32,000 nt of DNA from an uncultured Chloroflexia bacterium (GTDB lineage: Bacteria; Chloroflexota; Anaerolineae; Anaerolineales; Anaerolineaceae), in NCBI GenBank assembly GCA_963704755.1, contig OY969938.1, positions 2,880,001 through 2,912,000 on the forward strand. The letters are read 5' to 3'. The translations under genes were made by a program, and so were the position numbers. The notes under the pieces were generated by a model, which did not search any database, had not been told where the DNA came from, and saw nothing but the letters and a program-made list of their open reading frames with translations. This document shows positions 6,088 through 27,947 of the stretch, in pieces (the stretch's first letter is position 1; every line of letters begins with the position of its first letter).

Positions 6088-6112
6088 GGATTGTCGGATA
6101 TACTGCTTTCTC

Positions 6113-6377: not shown

Positions 6378-6542
6378 TGAACTGGTTACATGTATTTACA
6401 AATCTATTCTTGGAGTTTTTATGCAAAGGTGCTTATTAGGACCTCAAAATTACAATGACCGGCTCTGCCATAACGATCCACTGGACGGTATGTTGAAACG
6501 AGCCGCTACATCCAGCTTCAATCTCGAGGAGATCGTTAGGCC

Positions 6543-7721: not shown

Positions 7722-8784
7722 AGACCTGACCAGTACCAACCTGTTCGTCAACCGGGTGATGGTAGTGATGATGCCGATGATGATGCTCATCATGAACGGG
7801 TTGTCGGTGCTGATTATCTGGATCGGCGCGCACCAGGTGGCCCAATCGGCCATGCAGGTTGGCGACATGATCGCCTTCTTGCAGTACACCATGCAGATCG
7901 TGATGGCCTTCCTGATGCTCTCGCTGATGTTCATCATCTTGCCGCGTGCTTCGGTTTCGGGCGGCCGTATTGCCGATGTGCTCGAGACCAAGCCGACCAT
8001 CCTCGACCCGGAGAAACCCCGCCTGCTCAACGGCCCTGCCAAAGGAGCAGTCGAGTTCCGCAACGTTTCCTTCCGTTACCCTGGCGCTGAAGAGGACGTC
8101 TTGCACGACATCAACTTCACCGCTTTACCGGGCCAGACCACGGCCATCATCGGCTCGACCGGCTCCGGAAAATCGACCATCATCAACCTGATCCCACGCT
8201 TTTATGACGTGACCGGCGGTTCCATCAATGTCGATGGGATCGATATCCGCGAATTGACCCAACACGATCTGCGTGACCAGATTGGCTACGTACCGCAAAA
8301 GAGCCCGTTGTTTACCGGTACGATCGATAGCAACCTGCGCTATGCCGACGAAAACGCCAGCGATGTTGCCATACAAGACGCGGTAGAAATTGCCCAGGCG
8401 GCCGAGTTTATTTACAGCAAACCGGAAGGCCTGGAGACCGAGATTTCACAAGGCGGCAAGAATGTATCCGGCGGCCAGAAACAGCGGCTTTCCATCGCCC
8501 GCGCACTGGTCAAAAAGCCACCCATCTATATCTTCGATGACAGTTTTTCTGCCCTGGACTTTAAGACCAATTCTGCTTTGCGAAAAGCGCTTAAAGATAA
8601 AACCGCTGCCAGCACTGTGCTGATCGTAACCCAACGTGTTTCTACGATCAAAAATGCCGAGCAAATCATCGTGCTCGACGAAGGCAAAATTGTAGGAAAA
8701 GGCACGCACCACGAATTAATGGACTCCTGCGAACCTTATCGGGAAATTGCCTTATCGCAGCTCCGCATGGAGGAATTGGGATGA
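7690..8784 (+). CDS. ABC exporter, C-terminal fragment (TM5-TM6 + nucleotide-binding domain); continuation of 6543..7721 in the +1 frame
   Basis: Begins (TTG)KKNRFDVANKDLTSTNLFVNRVMVVMMPMMMLIM. Walker A is GSTGSGKST and the signature is VSGGQKQRLSIARA. Walker B is IYIFDDSFSALD (Asp in place of the catalytic Glu), and the switch region is LIVTQRVS (Gln in place of His). This frame is open from 7660. Confidence 0.85.
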   Translation: MKKNRFDVANKDLTSTNLFVNRVMVVMMPMMMLIMNGLSVLIIWIGAHQVAQSAMQVGDMIAFLQYTMQIVMAFLMLSLMFIILPRASVSGGRIADVLETKPTILDPEKPRLLNGPAKGAVEFRNVSFRYPGAEEDVLHDINFTALPGQTTAIIGSTGSGKSTIINLIPRFYDVTGGSINVDGIDIRELTQHDLRDQIGYVPQKSPLFTGTIDSNLRYADENASDVAIQDAVEIAQAAEFIYSKPEGLETEISQGGKNVSGGQKQRLSIARALVKKPPIYIFDDSFSALDFKTNSALRKALKDKTAASTVLIVTQRVSTIKNAEQIIVLDEGKIVGKGTHHELMDSCEPYREIALSQLRMEELG

Positions 8785-13901: not shown

Positions 13902-15470
13902 CTATTCCCCGCTGGATTGAAGTTGTTCATTGGTTTTCTTGCGAATCAGCCAGACGCTGACCAGGGCGCTCAGCCAGGCCAGGCCGGCATCGATCAGCAA
14001 TACGGTATTGACCGTCTTGACAAAGGCCCGGTCGATGGCCTGATTTACGGCAGAAGTGACCGCTGGCGACAAACCTGCCGGCGCCTGGAGTGCCCCTAAT
14101 TGGGCTGCGCCGGATCGAAGGGCGCTGGCAGCCTGGTCCGAGAGGCCCAGGGTAGCGGTTTGTTGGGCAAGCTGGGCCTGGAAGTGGAACAACGCGACGG
14201 CACCCAGGATCGCGATGGCTAAAACACCGGCCGTGCGGGCGACGGCGTTGTTGATCCCCGAGGCGGTGCCGGAATACTGGCTATCTACTGCGCCTAATAC
14301 TGTGGCAGTCAGAGGCGAGACGGTCAGCCCCATACCGACGCCGAAGATCAGGATGCCTGGGAAAAAGGTAGTCCAGTAAGCGGACGGGCCGGCCGTCAAC
14401 CCGGCCAGGCTGAGGACGAAAAACCCGACCCCAACCAGGGCCGGGCCCAGAATCAATAAACGCCGCGGGCCGAGCAGGTCGGCCTGGCGGCCGGCCCAGC
14501 GCGAAAGCGCTGCCAGGGTCAGGGCAAAGGGCAGAAAGGATAACCCGGCCAGGCTTTCGGGATAGCCCTGGGTCTGGATCAGGTCGAGGGAGAGGAAAAA
14601 CGAGTTGGCGTTCAAAGCGCCGTACAGAAACAAGGTCAGCAGGTTGGCCCCGCTGAAAGTCGTCGAGCGGAAGAGGGGCAGCGGCATCATCGGGCTGGGG
14701 CTGAGGCGCTCGACGACCAGGAACAGGACCAGAAAAAGCAAGCCGACTCCCAGCGGCAGGAACACACTTGGGTTGGCGAAACCCAGGCCGGGGGCGGAGA
14801 TGAAGCCGTAAGTTAACCCGGCCAGGGCCAGGGCGATCAGCGCTGCGCCGGGCCAGTCGATGTGGCCACCCTCGTTGCCGCGTGTTTCGGGCACCCGTGT
14901 CGTCAAGATCGCCAGCGAGACCACGCCCAGGGGAATGTTGATCAGGAAGACCCAGCGCCACAGACCGGCCCCGGCCAGCAGACCGCCCAGGGCCGGGCCG
15001 ATGATGGTGACCAGGGTGGTGACCGACGACCAGGTGCCGATGGCGCGCCCACGGCGGTTTTCGACTACCGTGGCGTTGATGATGGCCAGGCTGCCGGGGA
15101 TCATCAACGCGCCGCCCAGGCCCTCCAGCACCCGGGCCGCAATCAGAAAAACGATCGAAGGGGCCAGGCCGCAGGCCAGCGAGCCGGCCATAAAGATAGC
15201 GATGCCGGCGGCAAAAACCTTCTTGCGCCCCAGGCGGTCACCCAGCGACCCACCGACCAAAATCAATGCAGCCAGGATGAGCAGATAGGAGTTGATAATC
15301 CACAGAAGCTGCGGCCCGGTGGCAGCCAGGCCGGTCTGAATGGCCGGCAAGGCCACGTTAAGAGCCGTGGTATCGATAAAGGCCATCGAAGTGGCCAGGA
15401 TTGTCGCAACAAGTACCCAGCGCTCGGCGTCAGCGGACCGGCCGGCCGTCCCGTTCAGGGTTGCGTCCAT
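13902..15470 (-). CDS. MFS transporter, DHA2 (EmrB/QacA-like, 14-TMS) drug:H+ antiporter family
   Basis: ORF 13902..15503. The N-terminus ...WVLVATILATSMAFIDTTALNVALPAIQ and GSLGDRLGRKKVF are typical DHA2 motifs. About 14 hydrophobic segments. I prefer the ATG at 15470 (MDATLNG) because GGGGA lies 5 nt upstream. ATG at 15503 is the alternative. Confidence 0.9.
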   Translation of the reverse strand: MDATLNGTAGRSADAERWVLVATILATSMAFIDTTALNVALPAIQTGLAATGPQLLWIINSYLLILAALILVGGSLGDRLGRKKVFAAGIAIFMAGSLACGLAPSIVFLIAARVLEGLGGALMIPGSLAIINATVVENRRGRAIGTWSSVTTLVTIIGPALGGLLAGAGLWRWVFLINIPLGVVSLAILTTRVPETRGNEGGHIDWPGAALIALALAGLTYGFISAPGLGFANPSVFLPLGVGLLFLVLFLVVERLSPSPMMPLPLFRSTTFSGANLLTLFLYGALNANSFFLSLDLIQTQGYPESLAGLSFLPFALTLAALSRWAGRQADLLGPRRLLILGPALVGVGFFVLSLAGLTAGPSAYWTTFFPGILIFGVGMGLTVSPLTATVLGAVDSQYSGTASGINNAVARTAGVLAIAILGAVALFHFQAQLAQQTATLGLSDQAASALRSGAAQLGALQAPAGLSPAVTSAVNQAIDRAFVKTVNTVLLIDAGLAWLSALVSVWLIRKKTNEQLQSSGE

Positions 15471-15831
15471 AAGTTCCCCATTAAACAAGCTGTCGCAGAT
15501 CACAGCAGGAATTCAATTATTATGTTTATCTATAATACCCGATTAATGGCGCTAAGCCTAGCAGGAAAATAAGGGCTAACAGACGGTTTACAGGCGGTTT
15601 GCATCGGGCTGGGAGGAGCGATTGCCTTAACCTTCGAATGGTGTCAACAGCACTTTGCCGGCAAACTGCCGGTTTATTGGATAGATTAAGAAGGGCAGGT
15701 TGGCTTGCATTATGATGGAAGTTATACAATACTTATAATAAGAGTTGTGCAAATCGTTGATCTTTACACGAATAGATAATTCGCAAGTTGGATTCAGGTG
15801 ATATTCAACGGAACTCAAATTGAGGGGGCTG

Positions 15832-16200
15832 GTGAAGACAAAGAGTAGTGTTTCACAAGAAAATCCATTTGCAGAAATAATCGATGAAGAATTAAGTTCA
15901 ATCGAGTTTGTTAGAGACTAGATTCAATTCCGTTTTGATGGTCCTACGTTAACGGCCTTTACCGATCCTGAAATTATTGTAAATGGAATACCTCATAAAC
16001 GCGCATCTGAGGATTTCTGCAACCTGGTTTTAAAGTGTATCGGGCAAGCGGTAATTTCAGCTATGGTGGAAGAAGGAAAAGTAATAACCATCTTGTTTGA
16101 GAATGGATTTACTCTGTCGATATCCTTAAAGCCTGAAGATTATGTGACGGCGGAGGCTGCAATTTTTGATGGTAGACAAATAGGATGGTGGGTCTGGTAG
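15832..16200 (+). pseudogene. Small immunity-like protein gene interrupted by an in-frame TAG
   Basis: GTG at 15832 after GAGGGGG. My translation is VKTKSSVSQENPFAEIIDEELSSIEFVRD*IQFRFDGPTLTAFTDPEIIVNGIPHKRASEDFCNLVLKCIGQAVISAMVEEGKVITILFENGFTLSISLKPEDYVTAEAAIFDGRQIGWWVW. The TAG at 15919-15921 falls where a Tyr would be expected (FV.DY.Q..FDG pattern). Not in the ORF track. Confidence 0.5.
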
Positions 16201-16302
16201 TAAAAAGTAACCTGTTCTAAAGAAGAAATGGACCATTTTCATTTTCGGAAAAAATGAATAAACCGTAAGTTTGCCACTTTATGTTCTGTTAGGAGGGAAA
16301 GA

Positions 16303-16587
16303 ATGGACGTAATTATCCCAGTTTTTAATATGTTTTGCTTAATATTGGTCATTGTGGGTATTCGGCGGTGGCAAAAAAGACATGGCAAATTGAGTGAAAA
16401 GTCAATGGCATTGATTTTGTGTGGGTATGGAAGTTTATTCACGATAACCACCTTTGTTGCAATTTACTTTGACACCGACCACGCGCCTCTCTCATTATTA
16501 CTTGGTCTCCTTTTCTTAGTAATGGTTTGGAGCCTCGGGTATTTCTTTGCCCGGTGGTTATATCGCCAGATCTATGCACAACGATAG
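16303..16587 (+). CDS. Small 3-TM membrane protein (paralog 1), possible immunity protein
   Basis: 94 aa. AGGAGGG RBS before the ATG. Three hydrophobic segments. Ends FFARWLYRQIYAQR and contains RRWQKRHGKLSEK. Paralogous to 16636..16905. Confidence 0.6.
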   Translation: MDVIIPVFNMFCLILVIVGIRRWQKRHGKLSEKSMALILCGYGSLFTITTFVAIYFDTDHAPLSLLLGLLFLVMVWSLGYFFARWLYRQIYAQR

Positions 16588-16635
16588 TGACCCGACAGGG
16601 GTTCCACGTTTCAGCACAGAAAGGGGACTGATAGT

Positions 16636-16905
16636 ATGGTTTTTCTTTTGATTTGCGCAATCCTTGCCTTTCTAGGGATGACCCACATGCAAGCAAGATG
16701 GTATCGACAGGGAAAGCTAACCGAAAACAATTTCGTGCCATTTCAGGCATTTATCTGGAGCTTTCTCATTCTGGCGATCTGTCTGTCTTTTTCATCGACC
16801 CTTACAGGGATATATATCGGTGGAGCACTCTTTTTTCTAATTTTTTTCGGTGGGTTCCCGGTCGCTCGATGGTTTTATAGGAAATTCATCGTGCAGAAAC
16901 CATAA
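16636..16905 (+). CDS. Small 3-TM membrane protein (paralog 2), possible immunity protein
   Basis: 89 aa. AGGGGA RBS. Contains ARWYRQGKLTEN and the C-terminal PVARWFYRKFIVQKP, mirroring the upstream ORF. Confidence 0.6.
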   Translation: MVFLLICAILAFLGMTHMQARWYRQGKLTENNFVPFQAFIWSFLILAICLSFSSTLTGIYIGGALFFLIFFGGFPVARWFYRKFIVQKP

Positions 16906-17043
16906 GATGAGCCACATTACCACTTCGCCAGGTACAACGAAGATGGTAGTTCAGACATCGAGTTCGGTCATCCGTTTTGTTGGAGGAGCTTTGTAGGAAC
17001 CATAGTGCTACAAATTTTTGTATGGTCTGTGTTTGTGCCCTAG

Positions 17044-17919
17044 AAAGGGAATGGCTTATGGAATAAGCCCTGGGGTGAGGCACGCTACACCAGCGGTACT
17101 CTGCCCACCGACTACCAGTTCACCGGGCAAAGGAACGAGGACTCGATTGGGCTGTATTACTATGGCGCTAGATGGTATGACCCCTATCTTAGTCGCTGGA
17201 TCCAGCCTGATGCCATCGTACCCGATCCTTACAATCCAATTGATTGGGATCGATATTCCTATGTGAACAACAATCCAGTTATCTATATCGACCCCACGGG
17301 TCATTGGAGATGTGGAGATCAATATGACTTGGCTTGTGCCGAAAACAGTAATGAAAAACTCGCATGGTCGAAAGCAACTTTTGATGTAAGAATCAGAGAA
17401 TACTCCAAAGAAAACTCACTAATCCAAATTCCAGATTCTGCTTTTGCATATGGGGCTGTTAGTTCTGGCATACTTTATACTGGTTTCTGGACCGACGAGT
17501 TAAGCAGAGGAGGAACATGGGCAGAGCAAGCTATTTATGATGGAATTCTTGCAATCGCCCACAACCTTGATACCGGGATCCTGGCCCTGGGAATGGGTGG
17601 GGATATAGCTCCAATTGGAGGAGTTTACACATTAACAAATTCTGATGGAGTTGTTGTTAGAGTGGGACAAACGAAAGATTTCAACATGAGGGAAAGATCT
17701 TATAAAAGTAAAAGCGACTACTTTGACTTGGATTTCAATCCAATGTATTATACAGACGAATATGCCGAAAGGCGTGGCCTAGAACAGTATCTGTTTGATA
17801 ATTTTCAGTCCCCACCCTTAAATAAGTACAGACCAATTAGTCCTAAAAATGGGAAATTAGATACATATATTTCTGCTGCATCTAAATTCTTGGAAAAATT
17901 TGGCATATATTGGCCTTAG
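17044..17919 (+). CDS. Orphan (5'-truncated) Rhs/YD-repeat core tip fused to a GIY-YIG (URI)-type nuclease toxin domain
   Basis: The frame is open from 17044 (preceded by TAG at 17041): KGNGLWNKPWGEARYTSGTLPTDYQFTGQRNEDSIGLYYYGARWYDPYLSRWIQPDAIVPDPYNPIDWDRYSYVNNNPVIYIDPTGHW. This is the conserved end of the Rhs core. The C-terminal part GGVYTLTNSDGVVVRVGQTKDFNMRERSY...RRGLEQYLFDNF...LNKY fits GIY-x10-YIG, KDF..R..R, Glu and Asn, as in GIY-YIG nucleases. The first in-frame start is GTG at 17263, which is where the ORF track begins. Confidence 0.75.
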   Translation, partial: KGNGLWNKPWGEARYTSGTLPTDYQFTGQRNEDSIGLYYYGARWYDPYLSRWIQPDAIVPDPYNPIDWDRYSYVNNNPVIYIDPTGHWRCGDQYDLACAENSNEKLAWSKATFDVRIREYSKENSLIQIPDSAFAYGAVSSGILYTGFWTDELSRGGTWAEQAIYDGILAIAHNLDTGILALGMGGDIAPIGGVYTLTNSDGVVVRVGQTKDFNMRERSYKSKSDYFDLDFNPMYYTDEYAERRGLEQYLFDNFQSPPLNKYRPISPKNGKLDTYISAASKFLEKFGIYWP

Positions 17920-17931
17920 GAGAGAAACTAG

Positions 17932-18411
17932 ATGGTAAGGAAAAAGATCTATGTCAATGAAGGACAATGGTTTGCGGTTCCTCTTAGGAATGGGGGATAC
18001 GCTTTAGGTGTTATTGTAAGAGGAGATAATAAATCAGTCTGCCTTGGATATTTCTTTGGGCCGAAGTACGAAAAACCCCCAGTGGATGAGGATGTTTTGA
18101 AAAAAAAACCTGAAGATGCAATCTTAATTACTCGATTTGGTGACCAGGGTCTTAAGAATAGTAGTTGGCCGCTTATCCAAACGCCTCGTCCATTTTCAAG
18201 AGAAGAATGGCCAATACCAAAATTTTGCGTTGAAGTTCCATTCTCTCCCGATAAAGCCTTTGTTCGCGAGTATGAATTTCGAGATTCCGGCGAATGGCGC
18301 CTCATCCGTGAATACCTGGTTGATGCCAAGACCGTAATGGGTATGCCAAGTGATAGTTTAAAAGGAGGGGGTTCGGTTGAGGTAACACTGACCAAACTGC
18401 TCGAAAAATAA
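17932..18411 (+). CDS. Hypothetical protein, candidate cognate immunity protein for the upstream toxin domain
   Basis: 159 aa, 12 nt after the toxin stop. GGAGAG RBS. Same AT-rich composition. The position is typical of polymorphic-toxin immunity genes. I did not recognise a family with confidence. Confidence 0.7.
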   Translation: MVRKKIYVNEGQWFAVPLRNGGYALGVIVRGDNKSVCLGYFFGPKYEKPPVDEDVLKKKPEDAILITRFGDQGLKNSSWPLIQTPRPFSREEWPIPKFCVEVPFSPDKAFVREYEFRDSGEWRLIREYLVDAKTVMGMPSDSLKGGGSVEVTLTKLLEK

Positions 18412-18591
18412 TGGAATGTTTTTTCTGCAGCCTGAAATTAAAGACAAGATAATTCGAGGAAAAATATCAATCGCTACTCGTCTACTTTAGGCGTTGTCAA
18501 TATTGCATCAGTCTCTCCATTACCGCGCGTCTCGCCCGGATCTGGCTGAATGGGTTGTTCCTTGGTCAAGAGAATGAGGTGGTCAAACTGA

Positions 18592-18792
18592 CAATACAAG
18601 CCGCCCGCACCGGCCGGGCAGGTGTACCGCAATTATATTTATTCTGGCGGGTAGCGCGTGGCCATGCGGGAATACACCTCAACGACCAGTACGGTGGATT
18701 ACCTGCTGGGCGATCACCTGGGCTGGACCCGGTTTACCGGTGCTATTCTCCTCACCGGCCAATTTTGTCTTCTCCGCCGCTTTCATTTATAA
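18592..18792 (+). pseudogene. Rhs core-domain remnant with an in-frame TAG
   Basis: My translation is QYKPPAPAGQVYRNYIYSGG*RVAMREYTSTTSTVDYLLGDHLGWTRFTGA... (TAG at 18652-18654). It resembles the yYy.gGqRVAMR....YLlgDHLGSt block of Rhs-associated core domains. It has no start and is flanked by stops. Confidence 0.4.
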
Positions 18793-18849: not shown

Positions 18850-20565
18850 ATGTATAGAAAACATTTAATAGGTTCTGTCTTCGTCAGAATCATTCTCATT
18901 TTTATTGGGATGATGGTGCCGCTTTATATCCTGGGGGCGGCGTTATATTCGTTGAGCGCGGCGACCCTGCGTAAAGAGATTTCGGGCAACATGTCCACCC
19001 AGATGGACTTTTACCTGAACAACATGGAAAGCGAGATCGCCCGCATCCGCACGATGCAGGTTGAGTTTATGAACGACGAGGACCTCAATTACCTCGCCAA
19101 CGCCAACACCATTATGTGGACGTACGAAAAGACCATGACCGAGCAGCGCGCCGAGCGCCGGCTGGTGTTGTTTAAATACAGCAGCAATTACATCCAAAGC
19201 GTGGACGTCCACATCCCGGGCATGGGCAATACCATCTCGTCTGAAGAGGGCATGACCGACCTCTCGCCCGATTATGCCAGCAGCCTGGAAATTATCCAAC
19301 AGTCCGGCGGACAAACGCTGCAAATGCGTTCGGATGGCTGGTTCCTCTATTCGGCTTACCCGCTGCGGATTTCATACGATCAACCCCCGCTCTACATCGT
19401 GGTGACCGAGCTCTCGCGCAAGGCCATCGACGAGGCCTTCTCCAACTCGGTCTCGGTCTTCGGCGGCGCGTTTGCCTACTACCCGGCCGGAGACGTGCTC
19501 TACGGGGTGCAGGACAAGAACGTCGATAGCCAGGTCATCGACGCCTTCAACGCCAATGATGCGCTGTCGCAGTCGATCACCGTGCCCGGGCAGGGCACTT
19601 ACCTGGTCCTGCGCAAACATTCCGACTACCTCGGCATCGATTACTACGCCTATATTTCCGAGGACCAGGCCTATGCGCCGGCCAAGAAGATCGCGATCCT
19701 GTTCTTCGCCTTTTCCATCGCCGCGATCTCGACCGTGGTGGCCTTCTCGCTCTTTTCCCGCAAGGTGGTCCACCAGCCGGTTTCCCGCCTGGTGGCGGCC
19801 TTCAAACGCCTGGAAAACGGCGACCTGGACATCCGCATCGAGCCCGACACCCGCGACGAGTTTCGCTATCTGTACGAGGCTTTCAATACCATGGTGGCGA
19901 GCCTGAAGAGCTTGTTTACCCAGGTATCTAATTACGAGGTGTTGACCCGCGAAGCCCAGTTGAAGCAGCTCCAGGCGCAGATCTCACCGCACTTCTTGTA
20001 TAACTGCCTCTATATTATTTATCGCATGGCCCAGATGGGCGATATGGATAACGTGGTGGTGTTTACCAACCACCTGAACACCTATTACCGCTACATCACC
20101 CGCGACGCCCAGAACGAAGTGCCCCTGTTCAAAGAAGTAGAGCACGCCAAAAACTATACCGCCATCCAGTACATCCGCTTTTCCAACCGCATCGACATCC
20201 TTTGGGGCGAACTGCCCGAGAAATACAAGGACCTGCTGGTGCCCCGGCTGATCTTGCAGCCCTTGATCGAGAACGCCTTTCAACACGGCCTGAAAGACGT
20301 GGATTCGGACGGTCGGCTGGAAATCCGCATGATCGAGGACGGCGACTGCCTGCACATCACTGTCGAGAATAACGGCCCCGTCCCCTCGCAGCAGGAGATC
20401 GACGAGCTGAAGACCCGCATCCTGAGCGACGACTATAAAGGCGAAACCACTGCCCTGCGCAACATTCACCGCCGCGTGTCCACCCTGTTTGGCAGCGGCA
20501 GCGGCCTGTACCCTTCGGTCACCGCCGAAGGGCATTTTAGTATTTGCCTGACGATTAAAAGGTAG
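18850..20565 (+). CDS. Sensor histidine kinase, YesM-like (two TM segments + HAMP + His_kinase/HATPase)
   Basis: 571 aa. It has an N-terminal TM, a periplasmic region and a second TM. HAMP region VSRLVAAFKRLENGDLDIRIE. LytS/YesM-type H-box QISPHFLYNCLYIIYRM. ATPase region LILQPLIENAFQHG. Confidence 0.92.
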   Translation: MYRKHLIGSVFVRIILIFIGMMVPLYILGAALYSLSAATLRKEISGNMSTQMDFYLNNMESEIARIRTMQVEFMNDEDLNYLANANTIMWTYEKTMTEQRAERRLVLFKYSSNYIQSVDVHIPGMGNTISSEEGMTDLSPDYASSLEIIQQSGGQTLQMRSDGWFLYSAYPLRISYDQPPLYIVVTELSRKAIDEAFSNSVSVFGGAFAYYPAGDVLYGVQDKNVDSQVIDAFNANDALSQSITVPGQGTYLVLRKHSDYLGIDYYAYISEDQAYAPAKKIAILFFAFSIAAISTVVAFSLFSRKVVHQPVSRLVAAFKRLENGDLDIRIEPDTRDEFRYLYEAFNTMVASLKSLFTQVSNYEVLTREAQLKQLQAQISPHFLYNCLYIIYRMAQMGDMDNVVVFTNHLNTYYRYITRDAQNEVPLFKEVEHAKNYTAIQYIRFSNRIDILWGELPEKYKDLLVPRLILQPLIENAFQHGLKDVDSDGRLEIRMIEDGDCLHITVENNGPVPSQQEIDELKTRILSDDYKGETTALRNIHRRVSTLFGSGSGLYPSVTAEGHFSICLTIKR

Positions 20566-20570
20566 AACCT

Positions 20571-22190
20571 ATGCTGAGATTGTTGATTGTCGATGACGAG
20601 CCGATTATCGCGGATGGATTGCACGACCTGTTCAGCAGCCGCTACCCCGAGGAGCTGGAGGTGCTGCGGGTCTATTCTGCTCAGGAGGCCATCCAGATCT
20701 TCACCCAGGCGCGTGTCGATATCATCATCTCAGACATCGAAATGCCCAAGATGGACGGCATCACCCTGATGAACGAAGTGCGGGCGCGCTGGTCGTACTG
20801 CCGGGTGATCTTTCTGACCGGGCACGACCGTTTTAACTACGCCTACGAGGCCATCTCGGGGGGAGTGTCCGCCTTTATACTGAAGACCGAAGCCGACGAC
20901 AAGATCCTGGCCGCCGTGGACCGCTGCATCGAGGAGATCGTCCGCGAAAACGACAACGACGAGTTCATCCAGCGCCTGCAGGCCGAGCTGGACGAGAGCC
21001 ACATTTTGATGCAGCGCGAGATCCTGTTGAACCTGCTGCGGGGCAAACTGCCGGTGGAGGTCTGCACTGCCAAGTTCGAGAGCCACAGCATCCAGCTCCA
21101 GGCCGGCCGGCCATGCGTGCTGGTCTGCGGCCGGGCGGATGACATGCCTTACGCGGAAGATATGGCCGAAAAGCAGGCCAAGATCAAGACGCTGTTTTAC
21201 CAGTACACCCGCGCCATCGGCAGCAGCTTTCTGTTCTTCGAAAATAACGATCGCTACCTGCACGGTATCATCCAGCCGGAGGCGCCCAGGCAGGGGGCGG
21301 CGGTGCTGATCAGCGAGGCGCTCGAGCACATGCAGGACGCCTGCATCTCGATCACCGGCCTGAAGGTTTCCTTCATCGTCGATGACCAGGAAGTGGCTCT
21401 CAATAAACTGCCCGAGCGTTTTAGCGAGCTTTCCCATTTCGTACGCTACTGGCTGAACGGCAAGCTGAGCCCGCAGCTCTTCCAGGCCAGCTATTTTACC
21501 CAGCGCATCGACGCCGGCGAGCTGGCGGACATGCGCAGCCGCACCGCGCGGGCCGAGATCATCAACCGTCTGCGCGCCGCGGTGGAAAACGCCGACCAGG
21601 CCGGCTTCGAGGAGTGCCTTGGGCAGGTCAAGAAGATGCTGGCCGGCATGGACGAGCAGTCGCTGCTACGCATGGAGATCCTTTCCTCGATCATCGTCTG
21701 CCTGGCCAGCTTCATCAACCGCCACCGTCTGACCGGTAAGCTGCCGCGGGCCACCTACCCGGCGCTGCAATCGGTCCTGTACGAGACGCCGGAGACAATT
21801 TTCGAGAGCCTGGACTCGCTCAGCCAGACCATTTTTTCGGCGGCCGCCGGCGCCGAGTACAGCAAGGACGAGGCTCTGGTGCGCAACATTCACCAATATA
21901 TTGCGGACCACATGTCGCAGAGCATCACCCTGCTGGAACTGGCCGAGTACATGCACTTCAATTCGGCCTACATGGCCCGCTTGTACAAGCAGATCACCGG
22001 CCACAACCTCACCGACGTCATCCTCGAGATCAAGATGATGCAGGCCCAGGAGCTGATCCACCAGTCGCCGCATTTGAAGATCAATGAGATCGCCGAGAAG
22101 ACCGGGTTCCAGTACCCGGCCTACTTCGCCCGCGTGTTCAAGAAGCGTTTCGGTATCTCTCCGCAGGAATACCGCGAGAAGCAGTCCTGA
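20571..22190 (+). CDS. Response regulator with AraC-type HTH output (YesN-like)
   Basis: 539 aa. Receiver domain MLRLLIVDDEPIIADGL...IIISDIEMPKMDGI. C-terminal AraC HTH ...INEIAEKTGFQYPAYFARVFKKRFGISPQEYR. Confidence 0.95.
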   Translation: MLRLLIVDDEPIIADGLHDLFSSRYPEELEVLRVYSAQEAIQIFTQARVDIIISDIEMPKMDGITLMNEVRARWSYCRVIFLTGHDRFNYAYEAISGGVSAFILKTEADDKILAAVDRCIEEIVRENDNDEFIQRLQAELDESHILMQREILLNLLRGKLPVEVCTAKFESHSIQLQAGRPCVLVCGRADDMPYAEDMAEKQAKIKTLFYQYTRAIGSSFLFFENNDRYLHGIIQPEAPRQGAAVLISEALEHMQDACISITGLKVSFIVDDQEVALNKLPERFSELSHFVRYWLNGKLSPQLFQASYFTQRIDAGELADMRSRTARAEIINRLRAAVENADQAGFEECLGQVKKMLAGMDEQSLLRMEILSSIIVCLASFINRHRLTGKLPRATYPALQSVLYETPETIFESLDSLSQTIFSAAAGAEYSKDEALVRNIHQYIADHMSQSITLLELAEYMHFNSAYMARLYKQITGHNLTDVILEIKMMQAQELIHQSPHLKINEIAEKTGFQYPAYFARVFKKRFGISPQEYREKQS

Positions 22191-22248
22191 TTTGGGATTC
22201 CTTTTGGCCCGGCCGGGCCGGTACAAAAAGGTTCTTTTCGGAAGAATT

Positions 22249-22301
22249 GGGAGTTTTTTATTTTTTTGTGTGCCTCGCACACAAAAAAATAAAAAACTCC
22301 C
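22249..22301. repeat. Perfect AT-rich palindrome (25-bp arms, 3-nt loop)
   Basis: gggagttttttatttttttgtgtgc (22249-22273), ctc, gcacacaaaaaaataaaaaactccc (22277-22301). The arms extend imperfectly outward (tcggaagaatt / gattcctcga). Confidence 0.85.
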
Positions 22302-22471
22302 GATTCCTCGACAGCGGCGAACAGAACTGCTTTCAGGCGCCCGGCCAGACTCGTTAAGCCGGGCGGGGCTTAAATGGTTCCTTTTGTATTCTAAAAGTAC
22401 GGCGATTATTCTTGTACCCCCCCTGCGCGAACCCTAAACTGAATATACCCCATTTTGTCAGGAGAGGAAAA

Positions 22472-24211
22472 GTGAAAGCCCCAATTTCAAGACTTGCAAT
22501 GTTGTGTTTGGTCTTCGCGATGCTGTTTGCCCTGATGGGCTGCAGCGCAACCCCAACTGCTACTCAAGCAAACGTCGCTGTTGAGGACACCTCCACTTCA
22601 GAAGCGGCAACTGCTCCGGCGGCTTCTGAACCAACCAGCGCACCTGCCGTGGATGAAGCCACCACGCAGGCACCTGAAGCGACCGCAGATCCGCTGGGCA
22701 AATACGACCCGCCGATCACGGTGACCGCAGCACGACCACTCGACGATAATGTGACCTTTAAAGAAGGGGAATCGCTCGAAAAGAATATCTGGATCAGCAC
22801 CTATGCGGACGACCTGGGCATCAACCTTTCCTACACCTGGATTGCGCCCAAGGCCCAGTACGAAGAACGCGCCAACGTCAGCATCATGAGCAACCAGCTT
22901 CCGGATATCATCCAGGTTAATGCTACCCAGTTGCAGCGCATGGCCGAAAACGACCAGATTGCCGATTTGACCGGTGTGTACAACCAGTACGCTTCCGATC
23001 TGACCAAATCGATCATCTCCGCAGAAGGCGACACCGTAATGGAAAGCTCCAGCTACAACGGTAAGATTGTAGCCCTGCCCAAGACCGGTTCATCTTTGGG
23101 CTCGACCCAGGTGTTGTGGGTGCGGTCGGATTGGCTGGATAAATTGGGCCTCTCGGCGCCGAAAACGATGGACGACGTGCTGGCCATTGCAAAAGCCTTC
23201 ACCGAAAACGACCCGGATGGGGATGGCAAGAACGACACTTACGGTCTGGGAATCAACAAAGACCTGTACGGATATTTCGCCGGTCTGGAAGGCTTCTTTA
23301 ACGGTTACCACGCCTATCCCAAACAGTGGGTCGAAAAAGACGGCCAGCTCGTATACGGCAGCGTCCAGCCCGAAGCCAAAGCTGCTTTGCAGGCCCTGCA
23401 GGATATGTTCAACAACGGCGAGATCGACCCCGAATTCGGCACTAAAGATGCCAGCAAACTGGCCCAGGACGCCAACGCGGGTAAAGTCGGCATGTTCTAC
23501 GGCTTCTTCTGGAACGCCGGCAGCGGTTGGCTGCAAGACGGTAAAGTGGCCAACCCCGACCTGGAATGGACGCCTTACGCCATCGTTTCGGCCGACGACC
23601 AGCCCGCATTGGTCCAGGTTCCGTTCGCGGTGGATACCTACTGGGTCGTTTCCAAAGACGCCCAGCACCCCGAAGCCGCCATCAAGATGATGAACCTGAT
23701 GTACGAGAAGATCTTCGGCGCGACGGCCGAGCCGAGCGTGTACAGCGTGGACGCCGATAACAACACCATCTTCGAGTACCCGCTGATCTACGGCGAGCCC
23801 CCAGACAAGAACATGGTCGCCCAGCAAAAGGTGGTCGCAGCGCTGGACAGCAGCGATCCCTCGCAGCTCAACAACGAAGAGAAGGGCTACTACGACAACA
23901 TCCTGCTCTTCCAGGGCGGCGACCTCAACCAGTGGGGCACCAACAAGATGTTCGGCAAGGATGGCTCGCTGAGCGTCATTAACGGCTACGAGGAAAGCAA
24001 GAACTACCTGGAGAACGCCTTCTTCGGGGCAGTGACACCGACCATGGCCGAAAAGAACGTGACCCTCGACAAACTCCAACTCGAAACATTCACCGAGATC
24101 ATCATGGGTGGGGATATTTCCAAGTTCGATGATTTCACCCAGAGCTGGGGCACACTGGGTGGTGACCAGATCACCCAAGAAGTAAACGACTGGTACGCTT
24201 CTCATCAGTAA
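22472..24211 (+). CDS. Extracellular solute-binding lipoprotein of a carbohydrate ABC importer (large LplA-like SBP)
   Basis: ORF 22412..24211. I prefer the GTG at 22472, preceded by AGGAGAGG. Lipoprotein signal VKAPISRLAMLCLVFAMLFALMGC (lipobox LMGC), followed by an Ala/Thr/Glu-rich linker. It precedes two permease genes. Confidence 0.9.
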   Translation: MKAPISRLAMLCLVFAMLFALMGCSATPTATQANVAVEDTSTSEAATAPAASEPTSAPAVDEATTQAPEATADPLGKYDPPITVTAARPLDDNVTFKEGESLEKNIWISTYADDLGINLSYTWIAPKAQYEERANVSIMSNQLPDIIQVNATQLQRMAENDQIADLTGVYNQYASDLTKSIISAEGDTVMESSSYNGKIVALPKTGSSLGSTQVLWVRSDWLDKLGLSAPKTMDDVLAIAKAFTENDPDGDGKNDTYGLGINKDLYGYFAGLEGFFNGYHAYPKQWVEKDGQLVYGSVQPEAKAALQALQDMFNNGEIDPEFGTKDASKLAQDANAGKVGMFYGFFWNAGSGWLQDGKVANPDLEWTPYAIVSADDQPALVQVPFAVDTYWVVSKDAQHPEAAIKMMNLMYEKIFGATAEPSVYSVDADNNTIFEYPLIYGEPPDKNMVAQQKVVAALDSSDPSQLNNEEKGYYDNILLFQGGDLNQWGTNKMFGKDGSLSVINGYEESKNYLENAFFGAVTPTMAEKNVTLDKLQLETFTEIIMGGDISKFDDFTQSWGTLGGDQITQEVNDWYASHQ

Positions 24212-24220
24212 ATCAAAACA

Positions 24221-24246
24221 GAAGGGAGGCCGTAAGGCCTCCCTTC
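24221..24246 (+). terminator. Intercistronic GC-rich hairpin after the SBP gene (attenuator or mRNA-stabiliser candidate)
   Basis: gaagggaggcc (24221-24231), gtaa, ggcctcccttc (24236-24246). No U-tract follows. Confidence 0.4.
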
Positions 24247-24277
24247 GCTAAAATACCGGTTTAGAAGAGAAACACGC

Positions 24278-25195
24278 ATGAAAAATCTGAAGCGGATCAA
24301 CTTCGGGAGGTTCAGGCAAGAAATTCCTTTTCACTTAATGCTGCTCCCGGCTGTGGCATTGCTCTTTGTGTTCAGCTACATCCCCATGGTCGGGAATTTG
24401 ATGGCATTCCAGAATTTCAACCCCACCAAGGGCATCTTTCACTCCACCTGGGTGGGCCTGCAAAATTTCAAATATATCTTTGCCCTGCCCGATACCTTTC
24501 CGGCCATCCGCAACACGCTGATCATCGCCTCGGCCAAGATGGTGCTGGGCATCGTCGTGCCGCTCCTCTTTGCGCTGATGCTCAACGAGATCCGCAGCAA
24601 AGTGTTCCAGGGTTCCATCCAAACGATCGTCAATTTTCCCCATTTTTTGTCCTGGGTCATCCTGAGCGGGATTTTGTTGGACATCCTCTCGCCCTCGGAG
24701 GGGATCGTCAACATGGTTATCAAGCTGGTGGGCGGCACGCCGATTTACTTTTTGGGCGATAAAGGCTGGTTCCCGGTCACCTTGATCCTTTCGGATACCT
24801 GGAAGGAGTTCGGCTACGGCGCCATTATCTACCTGGCCGCGCTGACCGCCATCGACCCGGGCCTTTACGATGCGGCCGCCGTGGATGGGGCCAACCGCTG
24901 GCAGCAGACTCTGCACGTCACTCTGCCGGGCATCAGCACGACCATTGTGCTGATGATGGTGCTCAGCCTGGGCAACATCCTCAACGCCGGCTTCGAGCAG
25001 GTGTTCAACCTGTACAGCCCGCAGGTATACGCCACCGGCGACATCATCGATACGCTGGTGTACCGCATTGGGGTGGTACAGGCCCAATATTCTATCGCAA
25101 CGGCCGTGGGACTATTCAAATCGGTGGTGTCGTTTGTATTGCTCAGCGTCTCCTACTGGCTGGCTTATAAGTTCACGAATTACCGGCTCTTCTAG
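24278..25195 (+). CDS. Carbohydrate ABC transporter permease (MalF/LplB-like)
   Basis: 305 aa, multi-TM. The EAA-loop region AALTAIDPGLYDAAAVDGANRWQQTLHVTLPGI is typical of binding-protein-dependent permeases. Confidence 0.92.
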   Translation: MKNLKRINFGRFRQEIPFHLMLLPAVALLFVFSYIPMVGNLMAFQNFNPTKGIFHSTWVGLQNFKYIFALPDTFPAIRNTLIIASAKMVLGIVVPLLFALMLNEIRSKVFQGSIQTIVNFPHFLSWVILSGILLDILSPSEGIVNMVIKLVGGTPIYFLGDKGWFPVTLILSDTWKEFGYGAIIYLAALTAIDPGLYDAAAVDGANRWQQTLHVTLPGISTTIVLMMVLSLGNILNAGFEQVFNLYSPQVYATGDIIDTLVYRIGVVQAQYSIATAVGLFKSVVSFVLLSVSYWLAYKFTNYRLF

Positions 25196-25255
25196 CCGGA
25201 ACCCTGCAAGGCGGTTGAGCAGTGGTCCGTTCACAAATAAAACCGTGGTGAAAAT

Positions 25256-26137
25256 GTGAGAAATCTAAAGTTCAGTGGCAAATTCTTTTCCACCCTCAAC
25301 ATCGTTATGCTGATCGTCATTGCGGTGGTTTGCCTGTTCCCGTTGATCAACGTCCTTGCGATCTCGCTCAGTTCCAAGGCGGCGGTCGGCTCCGGGCAGG
25401 TCAGCCTGTGGCCGGTTGACTTCACCCTGGCCTCGTACCAGTACGTGCTGCAAAAGGCCGAGTTCTTCGCCGCTTTCTTGGTCTCGATCAAACGCGTGTT
25501 GATCGGCGTGCCGGTCAACATGCTGCTGACCATCCTGGCTGCTTATCCCCTTTCGAAGGAGACCCGCGCCTTCCGTAGCCGCAATTTCTACTCCTGGTAT
25601 TTTATGCTCACCCTACTCTTCAGCGGCGGCCTGATCGCCTGGTACATGACCATCGTCAAGACGGGCATTATCGACAGCCTGGCCGCCCTGATCCTGCCGG
25701 GCGCGGTGCCGGTGTTCAACGTGCTCATTTTGATGAACTTCTTCCGCGGCATCCCCAAGGAGATCGAAGAGGCGGCCGTCATCGACGGCGCCAGCCAGTG
25801 GCGCATCCTGTTTCAGATTTTCGTGCCCCTGGCGCTGCCCTGCATCGCCACCCTGACCCTGTTTTGCTTCGTCAACCATTGGAACCAGTGGTTCGACGGC
25901 ATCATGTTGATGAATAACCCCTCGCATTACCCGTTGCAGAGCTACCTGCAAACCCTCATCGCCAATCCGGATGCCACCATGCTCAGCAGCAACCAGGCCC
26001 TGCTCATGACCCAGGTCAGCGACCGCACCAACCGGGCCGCCCAGGTGGTAGTGGCGGCGCTGCCGGTGCTGCTGCTGTACCCTTTCGTGCAGCGCTTCTT
26101 TGTCAAAGGCATCGTGATCGGCAGCGTCAAGGGCTGA
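25256..26137 (+). CDS. Carbohydrate ABC transporter permease (MalG/LplC-like)
   Basis: 293 aa, GTG start. EAA-loop region FFRGIPKEIEEAAVIDGASQWRILFQIFVPLALP. Confidence 0.92.
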   Translation: MRNLKFSGKFFSTLNIVMLIVIAVVCLFPLINVLAISLSSKAAVGSGQVSLWPVDFTLASYQYVLQKAEFFAAFLVSIKRVLIGVPVNMLLTILAAYPLSKETRAFRSRNFYSWYFMLTLLFSGGLIAWYMTIVKTGIIDSLAALILPGAVPVFNVLILMNFFRGIPKEIEEAAVIDGASQWRILFQIFVPLALPCIATLTLFCFVNHWNQWFDGIMLMNNPSHYPLQSYLQTLIANPDATMLSSNQALLMTQVSDRTNRAAQVVVAALPVLLLYPFVQRFFVKGIVIGSVKG

Positions 26138-26171
26138 CCCATTTGCAACTCCTCGGGCTTGTGCGAAAAGT

Positions 26172-26228
26172 CCCCGAATTTGAGGTGTTTGCGCTGGCGA
26201 AGCCAGCGCAAACACCTCAAATTCGGGG
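26172..26228. repeat. Palindromic repeat element, copy 2 (perfect 27-bp arms, 3-nt loop)
   Basis: ccccgaatttgaggtgtttgcgctggc (26172-26198), gaa, gccagcgcaaacacctcaaattcgggg (26202-26228). It shares cgaatttgaggtgtttgc with the element at 6328-6377. Confidence 0.9.
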
Positions 26229-26312
26229 TTCTTGCCGGTTGAGTTAAGGATTTGCATTCATTTCTAAAGAATCCGGGCGTTGCAAAACGCCCGCAACGAA
26301 CTGGAGTACGCT

Positions 26313-27605: not shown

Positions 27606-27606
27606 G

Positions 27607-27747
27607 GCAGACCCTCATCCCGGCCTTCTCCCTGAGAGGGGGAAGGAGCAAGAATCGTGCGGGGGCACTGCGGGCCTGCCGATGCTTAGGCCGGCCGGCG
27701 CAGACCCTCATCCCGGCCTTCTCCCAATATGGGGGAAGGAGCAGGAA
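27607..27747. repeat. Two direct copies (period about 93 nt) of a hairpin-containing intergenic repeat
   Basis: gcagaccctcatcccggccttctccc[tgaga/aatat]gggggaaggagca[a/g]gaa occurs at 27607-27654 and 27700-27747. Each copy is followed by a related actgcgggc..ccgatgc segment. A third G/C-tract hairpin, ccccccttcccaagggggg, lies near 27806-27824. Confidence 0.75.
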
Positions 27748-27947
27748 ACTGCGGGCAGACCGATGCCCCGGCTGAGCAAGATTCAGGTGCGCAGCGCATC
27801 TTTTCCCCCCTTCCCAAGGGGGGCCAGGGGGGATTCTTCGCGACTTGCCTGGGTGCTACCCGAGAAGCGCATTACAATACTTTTTGTATTCAGCCGCCCG
27901 GCGACTGAGCCGTTAGAACCCCCCATCCCTCTTAGCGGAGTACTGAA

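Follow-up and report, generated by a model that had tools for sequence, protein, structure and literature searches.

A start-less orphan Rhs toxin domain and its Imm26 immunity gene in a probably foreign, partly decayed island of an uncultured Chloroflexota bacterium

Introduction

How does an open reading frame (ORF) without a start codon come to hold the end of an Rhs protein and an intact toxin domain, and what could it still be worth to its host? We address this question for a frame located within a 32 kb stretch of DNA (hereafter the window) from an uncultured Chloroflexota bacterium. The tip of the Rhs core is a handle for homologous recombination and, in a complete Rhs protein, is also the region of self-cleavage. 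An initial annotation of the window gave the frame the layout of an orphan toxin cassette, one whose activation has to await recombination onto a complete rhs gene. Our analysis indicates that the locus is probably an orphan module made up of an Rhs C-terminal toxin and its immunity gene. It probably lies in a small remnant of an Rhs toxin/immunity array that was gained by horizontal transfer and has since decayed in part.

Results

A start-less ORF with a truncated Rhs core

The ORF (17044-17919, plus strand) comprises 291 codons and opens right behind an in-frame TAG (17041-17043, plus strand). Translation confirmed two features given by the initial annotation, namely that this TAG ends the frame 8 codons ahead of the onset of Rhs similarity (at ~17062-17065) and that there is no ATG, GTG or TTG in the frame ahead of GTG 17263. 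The codons following the TAG read KGNGLWNK and then PWGEARY, and the only potential starts ahead of GTG 17263 are the rare codons CTG, ATT and ATC. The 45-codon open stretch that precedes the TAG has no Pfam match. Over the length of the ORF, its own frame contains no stop in 291 codons, while the other five frames contain 8-25 each; from base composition, the probability of such a stop-free frame is ~9e-9.

The first part of the ORF encodes a 5'-truncated tip of the Rhs-associated core (17065-17304, plus strand; PWGEARY...YYYGARWYDP...DPTGH), which was recognized with TIGR03696 and by tblastn with RHS proteins. The earlier reading of this segment as an Rhs core end is upheld by the TIGR03696 profile (Rhs_assc_core), which aligns over model positions 2-76 of 76 with ORF residues 8-87 (E=1.2e-20), at a score of 73.7 bits that lies above the curated NCBIfam cut-off of 32.5. 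The tip closes with YIDPTGH (17284-17304), the terminal DPxG[LH] motif at the boundary between core and toxin, which is also present in the homologues P0002, P0007 and P0009. Among the matches listed, the nearest relatives of the core tip are from Chloroflexota, with identities of at most 68%.

In the 32 kb window we found no YD/RHS repeat shell ahead of the core, nor any N-terminal delivery domain. A tblastn comparison of six RHS proteins with the window gave matches only at 17047-17904 and 18685-18723, and no rhs body was detected there. A protein search with the 87-aa tip returned 33 candidates, which were only short proteins and none of which came from the window's 4.87 Mb contig; the 29 nearest tips, again all short proteins, likewise include none on that contig.

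A GIY-YIG fold with a variant second motif

Between DPTGH and the nuclease domain lies a variable linker, or pre-toxin region, of 104 aa (17305-17616, plus strand), which includes TTG 17329. The linker is kept only partly, in P0003, and its counterparts in other family members are mutually unrelated. Hydropathy gives no support for a transmembrane segment in it (maximum 1.16). The initial annotation had proposed a C-terminal domain of about 200 aa after DPTGH; the length is right (204 residues), but relatives conserve only the last ~100 of these (17617-17916). This conserved part, identified from its family, from profiles and from an AlphaFold model, is the toxin domain (17617-17919 including the stop, plus strand; GGVYTL...RVG...MRERSY...RRGLEQ...PLN...).

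The toxin domain belongs to a family of at least 907 representative clusters at 50% identity, in which it is always C-terminal (median number of residues to the C terminus, 0). RHS-repeat proteins that carry the domain are P0069, P0169, P0061, P0156, P0170 and P0041, and a 3382-aa YD-repeat protein from a Sphingomonas metagenome-assembled genome terminates in it. Full-length RHS proteins elsewhere thus end in the same toxin domain in several cases.

The Pfam GIY-YIG profile (PF01541) scores 16.5 bits with the domain alone and 13.5 with the whole ORF, below its gathering score of 22.6. All five close members examined match the profile as well, each below the cut-off (best E=7.8e-5). The profile check that had been suggested for this domain is therefore passed narrowly, with matches throughout but the gathering score missed. 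Tox-URI2 from Pfam gave no match to the toxin domain at E up to 10. Because the Pfam score falls below the gathering cut-off, assignment to GIY-YIG required fold evidence. A family profile searched against 177,635 PDB sequences placed UvrC (E=0.006) and I-TevI (E=0.064) as its top two matches, and hhalign comparisons with the GIY-YIG domains of UvrC and I-TevI gave probabilities of 83% and 81%, respectively. HMMER and hhalign thereby recovered the alignment to I-TevI that had originally been made by eye. The AlphaFold2 model of the toxin domain (pLDDT 95, pTM 0.85) has the order beta-beta-alpha-beta-alpha-alpha (E9-14, E20-26, H29-38, E46-52, H56-69 and H88-100; here and below, toxin residue numbers count from the start of a 107-residue segment, 17596-17916). 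Foldseek hits 1-9 with this model are all UvrC GIY-YIG domains (probability 1.00), and I-TevI is within the top 12 (probability 0.99; TM-scores 0.56 and 0.63). Profiles, hhalign and the predicted structure therefore support a GIY-YIG/URI fold despite the sub-threshold Pfam score, in line with the toxin type first proposed.

The first motif tyrosine (Y11, in GVY) is found in 96% of the family and aligns with 'GCY' of UvrC and 'GIY' of I-TevI. The second motif reads RVG; 91% of the family has arginine at R22, and 99% keeps G24. R22 is aligned opposite the tyrosine of 'YVG' in UvrC and I-TevI. R32 (99%), E63 (98%) and N76 (83%) are also conserved and correspond to R, E and N of UvrC in the profile alignment. 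All family residues with at least 95% conservation are retained in this ORF. Since the 'YIG' tyrosine is an arginine in this protein and in most of its family, the chemistry of the domain may differ from that of UvrC and I-TevI.

An intact ORF could also mean that the toxin is expressed alone. The genome's own gene call (P0001, 196 aa) begins at TTG 17329, which has GGAGA 10 nt before it. Initiation there or at GTG 17263 would yield a cytoplasmic 196-218-aa nuclease restrained by the product of the adjoining Imm26 gene. The two would then serve either for toxin-antitoxin-like addiction that stabilizes the island or for intracellular defense. We consider this unlikely, if conceivable. TTG 17329 is a poor start with a weak and distant Shine-Dalgarno sequence, GTG 17263 lacks one entirely, and an internal start would sit in a region that lacks a domain boundary. 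Furthermore, the toxin family otherwise always forms the C terminus of larger delivery proteins, and shuffled sequence yields promoter matches, and likewise terminator matches, at least as often as the region does. The preserved state of the ORF, with every conserved residue kept, is consistent with such independent expression, as is the orphan at locus L001, where the gene before it ends and an ATG comes immediately after that stop codon.

An Imm26 gene adjoins the toxin

An intact immunity gene of the Imm26 family (17932-18411, plus strand; 159 aa) begins 12 nt past the toxin stop and has a ribosome-binding site (AGGAG, 9 nt before its ATG), from which we infer that it is expressed. This is the ORF that the initial annotation had singled out as a possible neutralizer, and its family is clear from PF15428 (E=3.8e-15; 56.5 bits, above the gathering score of 23.3). 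Its product shares 65% identity with Imm26 of the L001 cassette. We found that the toxin domain is directly followed by Imm26 in four further loci from different phyla (L001, L005, L007 and L008); the pair occurs in Alphaproteobacteria, Myxococcota, Acidobacteriota and the GC-rich host of this window. Because Imm26 follows the same toxin domain in such distant phyla, gene order identifies the two as a cognate pair.

The pair resembles a system that is already described. Zhang et al. 2012 (PMC3482391) tabulated Imm26 as a partner of Tox-URI1, a toxin linked to RHS repeats as well as to Imm26, Imm14, Imm44 or Imm51; here, RHS-repeat proteins bear the toxin domain and Imm26 follows it. As in Tox-URI1, a URI (GIY-YIG) toxin is located at the C terminus of RHS proteins, Imm26 adjoins it, and stand-alone cassettes occur. 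In a comparison of motif sets, four of the five Tox-URI1 motifs (Y, YxG, R, [RK]xxE and N) are present as Y11, R32, R60xxE63 and N76; at the position of the published YxG, this protein and 91% of its family have RxG.

This substitution raises the alternative that the C-terminal domain is GIY-YIG-folded but is not a DNase, having been retargeted (e.g., to RNA) through the tyrosine-to-arginine change or being catalytically dead in this copy. The Pfam score under the cut-off and R22 in place of the motif tyrosine both fit this idea, and one paper calls Imm26 partners RNases (PMC11669294). However, the arginine is the family consensus and no lesion of this copy, and Tyr11, Gly24, Arg32, Tyr/His36, Glu63 and Asn76 align with conserved residues of UvrC and I-TevI. 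Tox-URI was classed among metal-dependent nuclease toxins by Zhang et al. (PMC3482391). In addition, the sole tested partner of an Imm26 protein is the Mg-dependent DNase TepC of Yersinia pseudotuberculosis, which is tightly bound and neutralized by the Imm26-domain protein TipC (PMC10833071). We regard this alternative as distinctly unlikely. The likeness to TepC-TipC lies in the Imm26 domain of the immunity protein, the toxins being likened by description; unlike the toxin studied here, TepC is a free T6SS effector that has no recognized domain and has an iron-binding role (PMC10833071).

A low-GC island with signs of decay

The module is located within a low-GC island of ~3.2 kb (15504-18726; ~40-50% GC in composition profiles). 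Its left neighbor is a host MFS transporter gene identified with Pfam (13902-15503, minus strand; 64% GC), and its right neighbor is a host histidine-kinase gene, also identified with Pfam (18850 onward). The payload has a GC3 of 0.30-0.35, compared with 0.79-0.86 for the neighboring host genes, which argues for a foreign origin of the island. GC content also declines within the ORF: it is 0.62 at 17065-17154, where GC3 (0.80) is host-like, then 0.43-0.47 over the remaining tip, and 0.44 and 0.35 for the linker and the nuclease domain, respectively. Composition profiles thus reproduce the fall from a GC-richer handle to an AT-rich payload that had been noted by the initial annotation. GC3 of the bulk of the tip (17155-17304) is 0.43, far off host values. 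No meaningful direct or inverted repeats and no recombinase genes flank the island, and neither a tRNA nor an Rfam family was found in the region searched. The operon running from the kinase to GH36 is syntenic in L010-L014, where the region upstream is unrelated.

Six window proteins were checked at 90% identity, and all six are singletons. The nearest relatives of the response regulator are metagenome proteins (57-71%), with Paenibacillus and Clostridia at ~30% identity.

Three further ORFs precede the toxin within the island. The first is a pseudogene (15832-16200, plus strand) with a TAG at 15919-15921, reading FVRD*IQFRFDG in translation where the intact homologue in L015 reads FVRDYIQFRFDG; relatives have a tyrosine in place of the stop. 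It has no Pfam family but has eight metagenome relatives with 35-48% identity, and in L018 its homologue and the gene for a 1975-aa RHS protein (RHS_repeat E=1e-126) overlap at the stop codon of the latter. This position suggests that the pseudogene is probably a former immunity gene. The other two, both from the ORF list, are small hydrophobic ORFs of 94 aa (16303-16587, plus strand; AGGAGGG ahead) and 89 aa (16636-16905, plus strand), neither of which has a family or Pfam match. They are alike over their full length, though weakly (25% identity, E=6e-4). The first may encode a candidate immunity protein, and their similarity indicates that the second is likely its tandem paralogue.

Downstream of Imm26, tblastn with P0010 and translation revealed a second Rhs core fragment (18628-18723, plus strand; RNYIYSGG*RVAMREYTSTTSTVDYLLGDHLG), which is interrupted by an in-frame TAG (18652-18654). 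Its counterpart in intact Rhs proteins precedes the PWGE tip by ~22 residues. A 31-position HMM run against the six-frame translation of the window matched solely at 18628-18723 (28 bits, E=7e-10; runner-up -2.5 bits). The fragment has a GC3 of 0.69-0.74 and no Pfam match. Since the homologue of an RHS-adjacent gene carries a nonsense mutation and the second core fragment contains a stop codon, the surroundings of the module look like a decaying array remnant more than a poised cassette.

The two core fragments stand in swapped order, [PWGE...DPTGH-toxin-Imm26]-216 nt-[...RVAMR...DHLG]. Such an order would arise if exactly one unit of an orphan array had looped out as a circle, by recombination between neighboring handles, and then been inserted via a handle break between DHLG and PWGE. 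The locus would then be a circularly permuted, integron-like mobile cassette and not what separate deletions had left behind. The fragments are indeed complementary and non-overlapping, as 18628-18723 ends with DHLG and the tip begins with PWGE ~22 residues on. Joining them head to tail would restore one handle of ~135 codons, although ~66 nt (~22 codons) would be absent from it. Both ends are GC-rich (GC3 0.69-0.80) with the AT-rich payload between them, and the repeated handles of L001 begin directly after DHLGS, which makes this a recurrent boundary. Nevertheless, any stretch of a tandem array that starts in one handle and ends in the next looks identical, and endpoints that fall within ~60 nt of each other are only a mild coincidence. 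Three more island ORFs (15832-16905) lie upstream, outside such a unit, and the island flanks have no direct repeats or recombinase genes. We therefore regard insertion as a circle as very unlikely. If it were true, array cassettes would leave as circles and re-insert elsewhere in the manner of integron cassettes, and the island would be a scar of this process.

Finally, the initial annotation had raised the possibility that 17044 is in truth preceded by a full rhs gene, which an assembly or sequencing error would conceal. Nothing we observed speaks directly for this, and it is hardly credible, since the locus is on a 4.87 Mb contig, the upstream region holds coherent small ORFs with ribosome-binding sites, RHS similarity is absent upstream in every frame, and the closest homologue is truncated alike on independent contigs from three samples.

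Discussion

The reading we prefer, and consider probable, is that of a remnant array with an orphan module, namely an Rhs C-terminal toxin and its immunity gene. In the ORF, the final ~80 residues of an Rhs core, without shell or start, are fused by a linker to a toxin domain of ~100 residues. Its truncated, start-less core is in frame with an intact toxin, and Imm26 adjoins it; the layout of an orphan toxin cassette that had first been proposed is thereby borne out. The closest homologue, P0002, is likewise an orphan tip-toxin-Imm26 unit and is followed in tandem by the next Rhs tip.

If fused to a complete Rhs protein, the core tip would self-cleave after DPTGH. The freed C-terminal piece would be delivered to a rival and act on the DNA there as a metal-dependent endonuclease, with Tyr11, Arg22 (where the second motif would have tyrosine), Arg32, Tyr36, Glu63 and Asn76 as putative catalytic residues. 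The producer would be protected by Imm26, which would bind and block the nuclease. For the toxin to be deployed, the ~240-nt core handle would first have to recombine with a full-length rhs gene resident in the genome. That activation would require such recombination is suggested by the known behavior of orphan cassettes.

With no start codon and neither a shell nor a domain for secretion, the toxin part is in all likelihood silent in this genome. The present-day value of the module probably rests in its immunity gene, which would guard against neighbors that deploy the same toxin family. It may even be that the DNA identity of the tip with a host-adapted rhs core is too low for recombination, given that GC3 of 17155-17304 is so far from that of the host. 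The long intact ORF could alternatively reflect expression by another route.

Orphan rhs-CT/rhsI modules of Salmonella Typhimurium offer a parallel in organization, as far as they are described in bioRxiv 10.64898/2026.07.13.738213, which credits Koskiniemi et al. 2014 with showing recombination between orphans and the resident rhs. According to that account, the Salmonella orphans also comprise a start-less 3' core fragment, a toxin and an immunity gene, and they are silent until homologous recombination onto the main rhs gene. Against the same account, the locus studied here differs in that no main rhs lies upstream in the window and the handle is short (~240 nt). It differs further in the stops within a neighboring inferred immunity gene and the second core fragment, which suggest decay.

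Candidate T6SS effectors of the PAAR-RhsA-GIY-YIG type in Salmonella (PMC11669294) similarly join Rhs to a GIY-YIG C-terminal toxin. Unlike the ORF described here, these are complete PAAR-Rhs effectors within T6SS clusters, their Pfam GIY-YIG match is above threshold, and Imm26 is not reported for them. The closest solved folds are those of UvrC (1yd6 and 1ycz) and I-TevI (1ln0 and 1mk0), with both of which the Tyr, Arg and Glu residues align; for UvrC the conserved Asn aligns as well. In contrast to these enzymes, to which its identity is ~14-25%, the toxin domain has Arg for the second Tyr and no DNA-binding or repair partner domains, and its role would be that of a delivered toxin.

Cassettes of this type are well known as modules of bacterial warfare, and this one adds little in principle. 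It does document how a cassette survives as an intact yet start-less ORF within an otherwise decaying island. Bacteria draw on orphan Rhs toxin/immunity cassettes when they swap the warheads of contact-dependent toxins, and the immunity genes that are retained influence which bacteria can live side by side. We also show that a large URI-fold family (at least 907 clusters), with Arg for the second motif Tyr, evades the Pfam GIY-YIG threshold. We found no report of an experimental test of the RxG toxin family in the literature searched. The family would be a reasonable candidate for the first biochemistry on a GIY-YIG nuclease with an 'RxG' motif and on the mode by which Imm26 would block it.

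Results

The cassette's open reading frame (ORF) has no canonical start codon ahead of its Rhs core. The in-frame TAG at 17041-17043 is followed by KGNGLWNK and then by PWGEARYTSGTLPTDYQFTGQRNEDSIGLYYYGARWYDPYLSRWIQPD...YVNNNPVIYIDPTGH, and the earliest canonical start is GTG 17263, upstream of which only CTG, ATT and ATC occur. The start-less frame described in the initial annotation is thus borne out. From 17044, no stop interrupts the frame for 291 codons, until TAG 17917-17919, while each of the five alternative frames across this stretch contains 8-25 stops (probability of no stop ~9e-9 from base composition alone). These intact codons argue for either recent arrival or some ongoing selection. 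An internal start at TTG 17329 or GTG 17263 would yield a cytoplasmic nuclease that forms an addiction-like pair with the downstream immunity protein, Imm26. The genome's own gene call (P0001, 196 aa) does begin at TTG 17329, and this reading is possible but weakly supported.

The 5' part of the cassette is the end of an Rhs core. Residues 8-87 match the NCBIfam Rhs-associated core profile TIGR03696 end to end at 73.7 bits (E=1.2e-20; cut-off 32.5 bits), in agreement with the core end first recognized by eye. Compared with the closest tips (RYKPWGEKRY and RYYPWGTERY), Rhs similarity sets in at ~17062-17065. A perfect 7-bp hairpin, GGCTTAT-GGA-ATAAGCC, lies at this junction (17053-17069), possibly by chance. 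No Rhs shell was found in the 32 kb window using tblastn with six RHS proteins.

The cassette sits within a compositionally foreign island. A low-GC block (40-50%), flanked on one side by an MFS transporter gene (64% GC) and on the other by a gene for a YesM-like histidine kinase, extends from ~15504 to ~18726. The GC content at third codon positions is host-like over the opening 90 nt of the tip (0.80 for 17065-17154) and falls to 0.43 in the rest of the tip and 0.30 in the nuclease domain, confirming the drop from core to toxin that had been noticed earlier. Imm26 has a value of 0.35, while the host kinase and regulator genes have 0.79 and 0.86.

A second Rhs core fragment, absent from the initial annotation, was detected by tblastn at 18628-18723 (+), 216 nt 3' of Imm26. 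It reads RNYIYSGG*RVAMREYTSTTSTVDYLLGDHLG, with an in-frame TAG at 18652-18654, and matches the YYYxGGxRVAMR...LLGDHLGS segment. A 31-position HMM of this segment found the fragment as its sole match in the six-frame translation of the window (28 bits, E=7e-10; runner-up -2.5 bits). Since this segment lies ~22 residues upstream of PWGE in intact Rhs proteins, the fragment and the tip are complementary and stand in swapped order around the payload. Such an arrangement could have arisen by circular permutation, with insertion of a circularized array unit; however, a simple array remnant explains the swapped order nearly as well and also covers the extra genes upstream.

Those upstream genes include a further remnant. 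The ORF at 15832-16200 (+), from a family without a Pfam model, is interrupted by TAG 15919-15921 exactly where its relatives carry a Tyr (FVRDYIQFRFDG). Its homologue in another locus (L018) overlaps the stop of an RHS protein 1975 aa long (RHS_repeat E=1e-126), which makes the window copy a probable dead immunity gene of the Rhs type. Between this pseudogene and the tip lie two hydrophobic ORFs, each with a good ribosome-binding site, at 16303-16587 (+, 94 aa) and 16636-16905 (+, 89 aa). They are weak tandem paralogues (25% identity, E=6e-4) that matched no known family and may be immunity proteins of the island. No empty-site relative of the island was found in the collections searched.

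The toxin domain belongs to a large family. With the 204 residues that follow DPTGH as query, a word-indexed search returned only four relatives, which share just the last ~100 residues with the cassette. When a profile of this region was scored against 1.84 billion representative proteins, it recovered 907 clusters at E<=1e-3 and 611 at E<=1e-10. Across the 150 top-scoring hits, the median distance from the end of the domain to the C-terminus is 0 residues. Of the 150 domain stretches retrieved, at least 37 are closely preceded by an Rhs tip motif. Six long members (P0069, P0169, P0061, P0156, P0170, and P0041) are RHS-repeat proteins, some also carrying SpvB, FG-GAP or DUF6531, and in a Sphingomonas metagenome-assembled genome (MAG; locus L005) the domain terminates a 3382-aa YD-repeat protein. 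The family thus behaves as a polymorphic-toxin warhead does. The window copy agrees with the family at all positions that are at least 95% conserved (consensus GGVYxL..G.V.RTGRT.DL.RR..EH...F....TD.YAEQRGLEQ.L.D.Y.PPLNKIRPISP.NPN..Y..AA.).

The GIY-YIG assignment made from sequence inspection holds for the fold, as judged by profiles and a structure model, but not for the Pfam score. Against PF01541 the domain reaches 16.5 bits (whole ORF, 13.5), below the gathering score of 22.6. All five close members tested match PF01541 (best E=7.8e-5), and the only other Pfam matches that recur among them are T5orf172 and MUG113, which belong to the same Pfam clan. A profile built from 56 sequences and run against 177,635 PDB sequences ranked UvrC's GIY-YIG domain (E=0.006) first and I-TevI's catalytic domain (E=0.064) second; hhalign gave these two probabilities of 83% and 81%, respectively. 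An AlphaFold2 model on the 56-sequence alignment (pLDDT 95, pTM 0.85) has the order beta-beta-alpha-beta-alpha-alpha. When the model was compared with the PDB by Foldseek, UvrC GIY-YIG domains took the first nine ranks (probability 1.00, TM-scores ~0.5-0.6), with I-TevI appearing by rank 12 (probability 0.99, TM-scores 0.56 and 0.63); nothing else rose above noise save a weaker plant glutaredoxin domain at rank 10. Fold-level membership in the GIY-YIG/URI superfamily is therefore well supported by profile and modeling evidence.

The alignments also pair individual residues. Numbered within the 107-residue segment at 17596-17916, Y11 aligns with the 'GIY' Tyr, R22-x-G24 with 'YIG' (Arg replacing Tyr), and R32 with the conserved Arg of UvrC and I-TevI. 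Y36 corresponds to the Tyr of UvrC 'RSY' and the His of I-TevI 'KRH', the toxin family consensus being His. E63 aligns with the Glu of both enzymes, the metal-binding Glu of GIY-YIG enzymes, and N76 with the conserved Asn of UvrC. The earlier by-eye alignment to I-TevI was therefore correct. The second Tyr is the only defining residue missing. Strict Pfam GIY-YIG membership fails on the score and on this one motif residue. Arg occupies that position in 91% of the family and is thus a family trait rather than a lesion of the window copy. Given the Tyr-to-Arg change, an activity other than that of a DNase is conceivable.

The closest homologue, at 1440-3237 of metagenome contig L001, is likewise an orphan. 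Its unit of Rhs tip, toxin and Imm26 is opened by an ATG directly after the stop of an unrelated hydrolase gene and starts in the core right after DHLGS. A hairpin and then a second Rhs tip follow 3' of the unit, and the inter-tip DNA repeat begins at the same point as the unit, just after the DHLGS-coding sequence. A misassembly hiding an upstream rhs gene is unlikely, as the contig is 4.87 Mb long and this homologue is equally truncated on contigs from three independent samples.

The toxin is paired with an immunity gene. This gene's ORF (17932-18411) begins 12 nt past the toxin stop, with AGGAG 9 nt 5' of its ATG, and matches Pfam Imm26 (E=3.8e-15). Four further loci carry a Pfam-confirmed Imm26 after the toxin domain: L001 (65% identical to the window Imm26), the Sphingomonas locus, a Polyangia MAG (L007), in which the domain is carried by a protein of 816 aa with no Rhs tip seen, and an Acidobacteriaceae MAG (L008, 481-1505), which has two tandem Imm26 paralogues. 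The pairing is thus conserved across loci. In locus L006, the ORF after the toxin retains only a short Imm26-like stretch and appears to be a degraded immunity gene. A promoter-like TTGACT-17-TATTAT at 17723-17751 (+), within the nuclease-coding part and ~180 nt 5' of Imm26, could drive Imm26 alone; shuffled sequence gives no fewer promoter-like matches than this region does.

Elsewhere in the window, an ABC exporter (membrane domain plus ATPase) is apparently split between overlapping ORFs at 6543-7721 and 7690-8784 (+). The ABC_membrane profile runs to position 207 in the first and covers positions 204-274 in the second, which suggests a frameshift or sequencing error. Further low-GC stretches occur at 5000-7000 (46-49%) and 31300-32000 (42%, with no long ORF), the rest of the window having 55-65% GC. 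The operon at 18850-30041 (YesM-like kinase, YesN-like regulator, sugar ABC transporter, GH4, and GH36) is syntenic in AT-rich metagenome relatives (L010-L014; 57-71% identity). At the 90% identity level, every window protein tested is a singleton, and the host lineage is thus poorly sampled.

Discussion

The cassette resembles Tox-URI1, likewise a nuclease-type domain that ends an Rhs core and has Imm26 as its partner; by layout, it is an orphan module of that kind. Tox-URI1 is a listed partner of Imm26 (Zhang et al.; PMC3482391), and the window's R60-G-L-E63 fits its [RK]xxE motif. TipC, an Imm26-domain protein, binds and neutralizes the Mg-dependent DNase effector TepC (Kd ~12 nM; PMC10833071), and GIY-YIG ends on Rhs proteins have been catalogued in Salmonella (PMC11669294). 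All concepts behind the cassette were already published in 2012-2014. Of modest interest are the large family outside the Pfam GIY-YIG model, the 'RxG' motif of that family, and the two core fragments in permuted order.

From established knowledge of Rhs proteins, the tip of a full-length protein would plug the shell and self-cleave after DPxG, and the C-terminal fragment would pass to a rival cell. There, the predicted GIY-YIG domain would cleave nucleic acid with a divalent metal unless bound and blocked by the immunity protein. What is directly demonstrated is the set of parts with their homologies, the C-terminal placement of the toxin family on RHS proteins, its conserved adjacency to Imm26 and, in the window, a missing start codon, a missing Rhs shell, foreign base composition, and two nonsense codons in neighboring elements. 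The toxin could be revived only by recombination of its ~240-nt handle with a resident rhs gene. Such revival of an orphan was shown in Salmonella by Koskiniemi et al. 2014, as cited in a preprint (bioRxiv 10.64898/2026.07.13.738213). Here, the odds are lowered by the lack of a nearby rhs gene and by a handle that, over most of its length, differs in composition from host DNA. Most likely, the window toxin is silent and Imm26 is possibly expressed, in which case Imm26 may serve as orphan immunity against neighbors that deploy the same toxin family.
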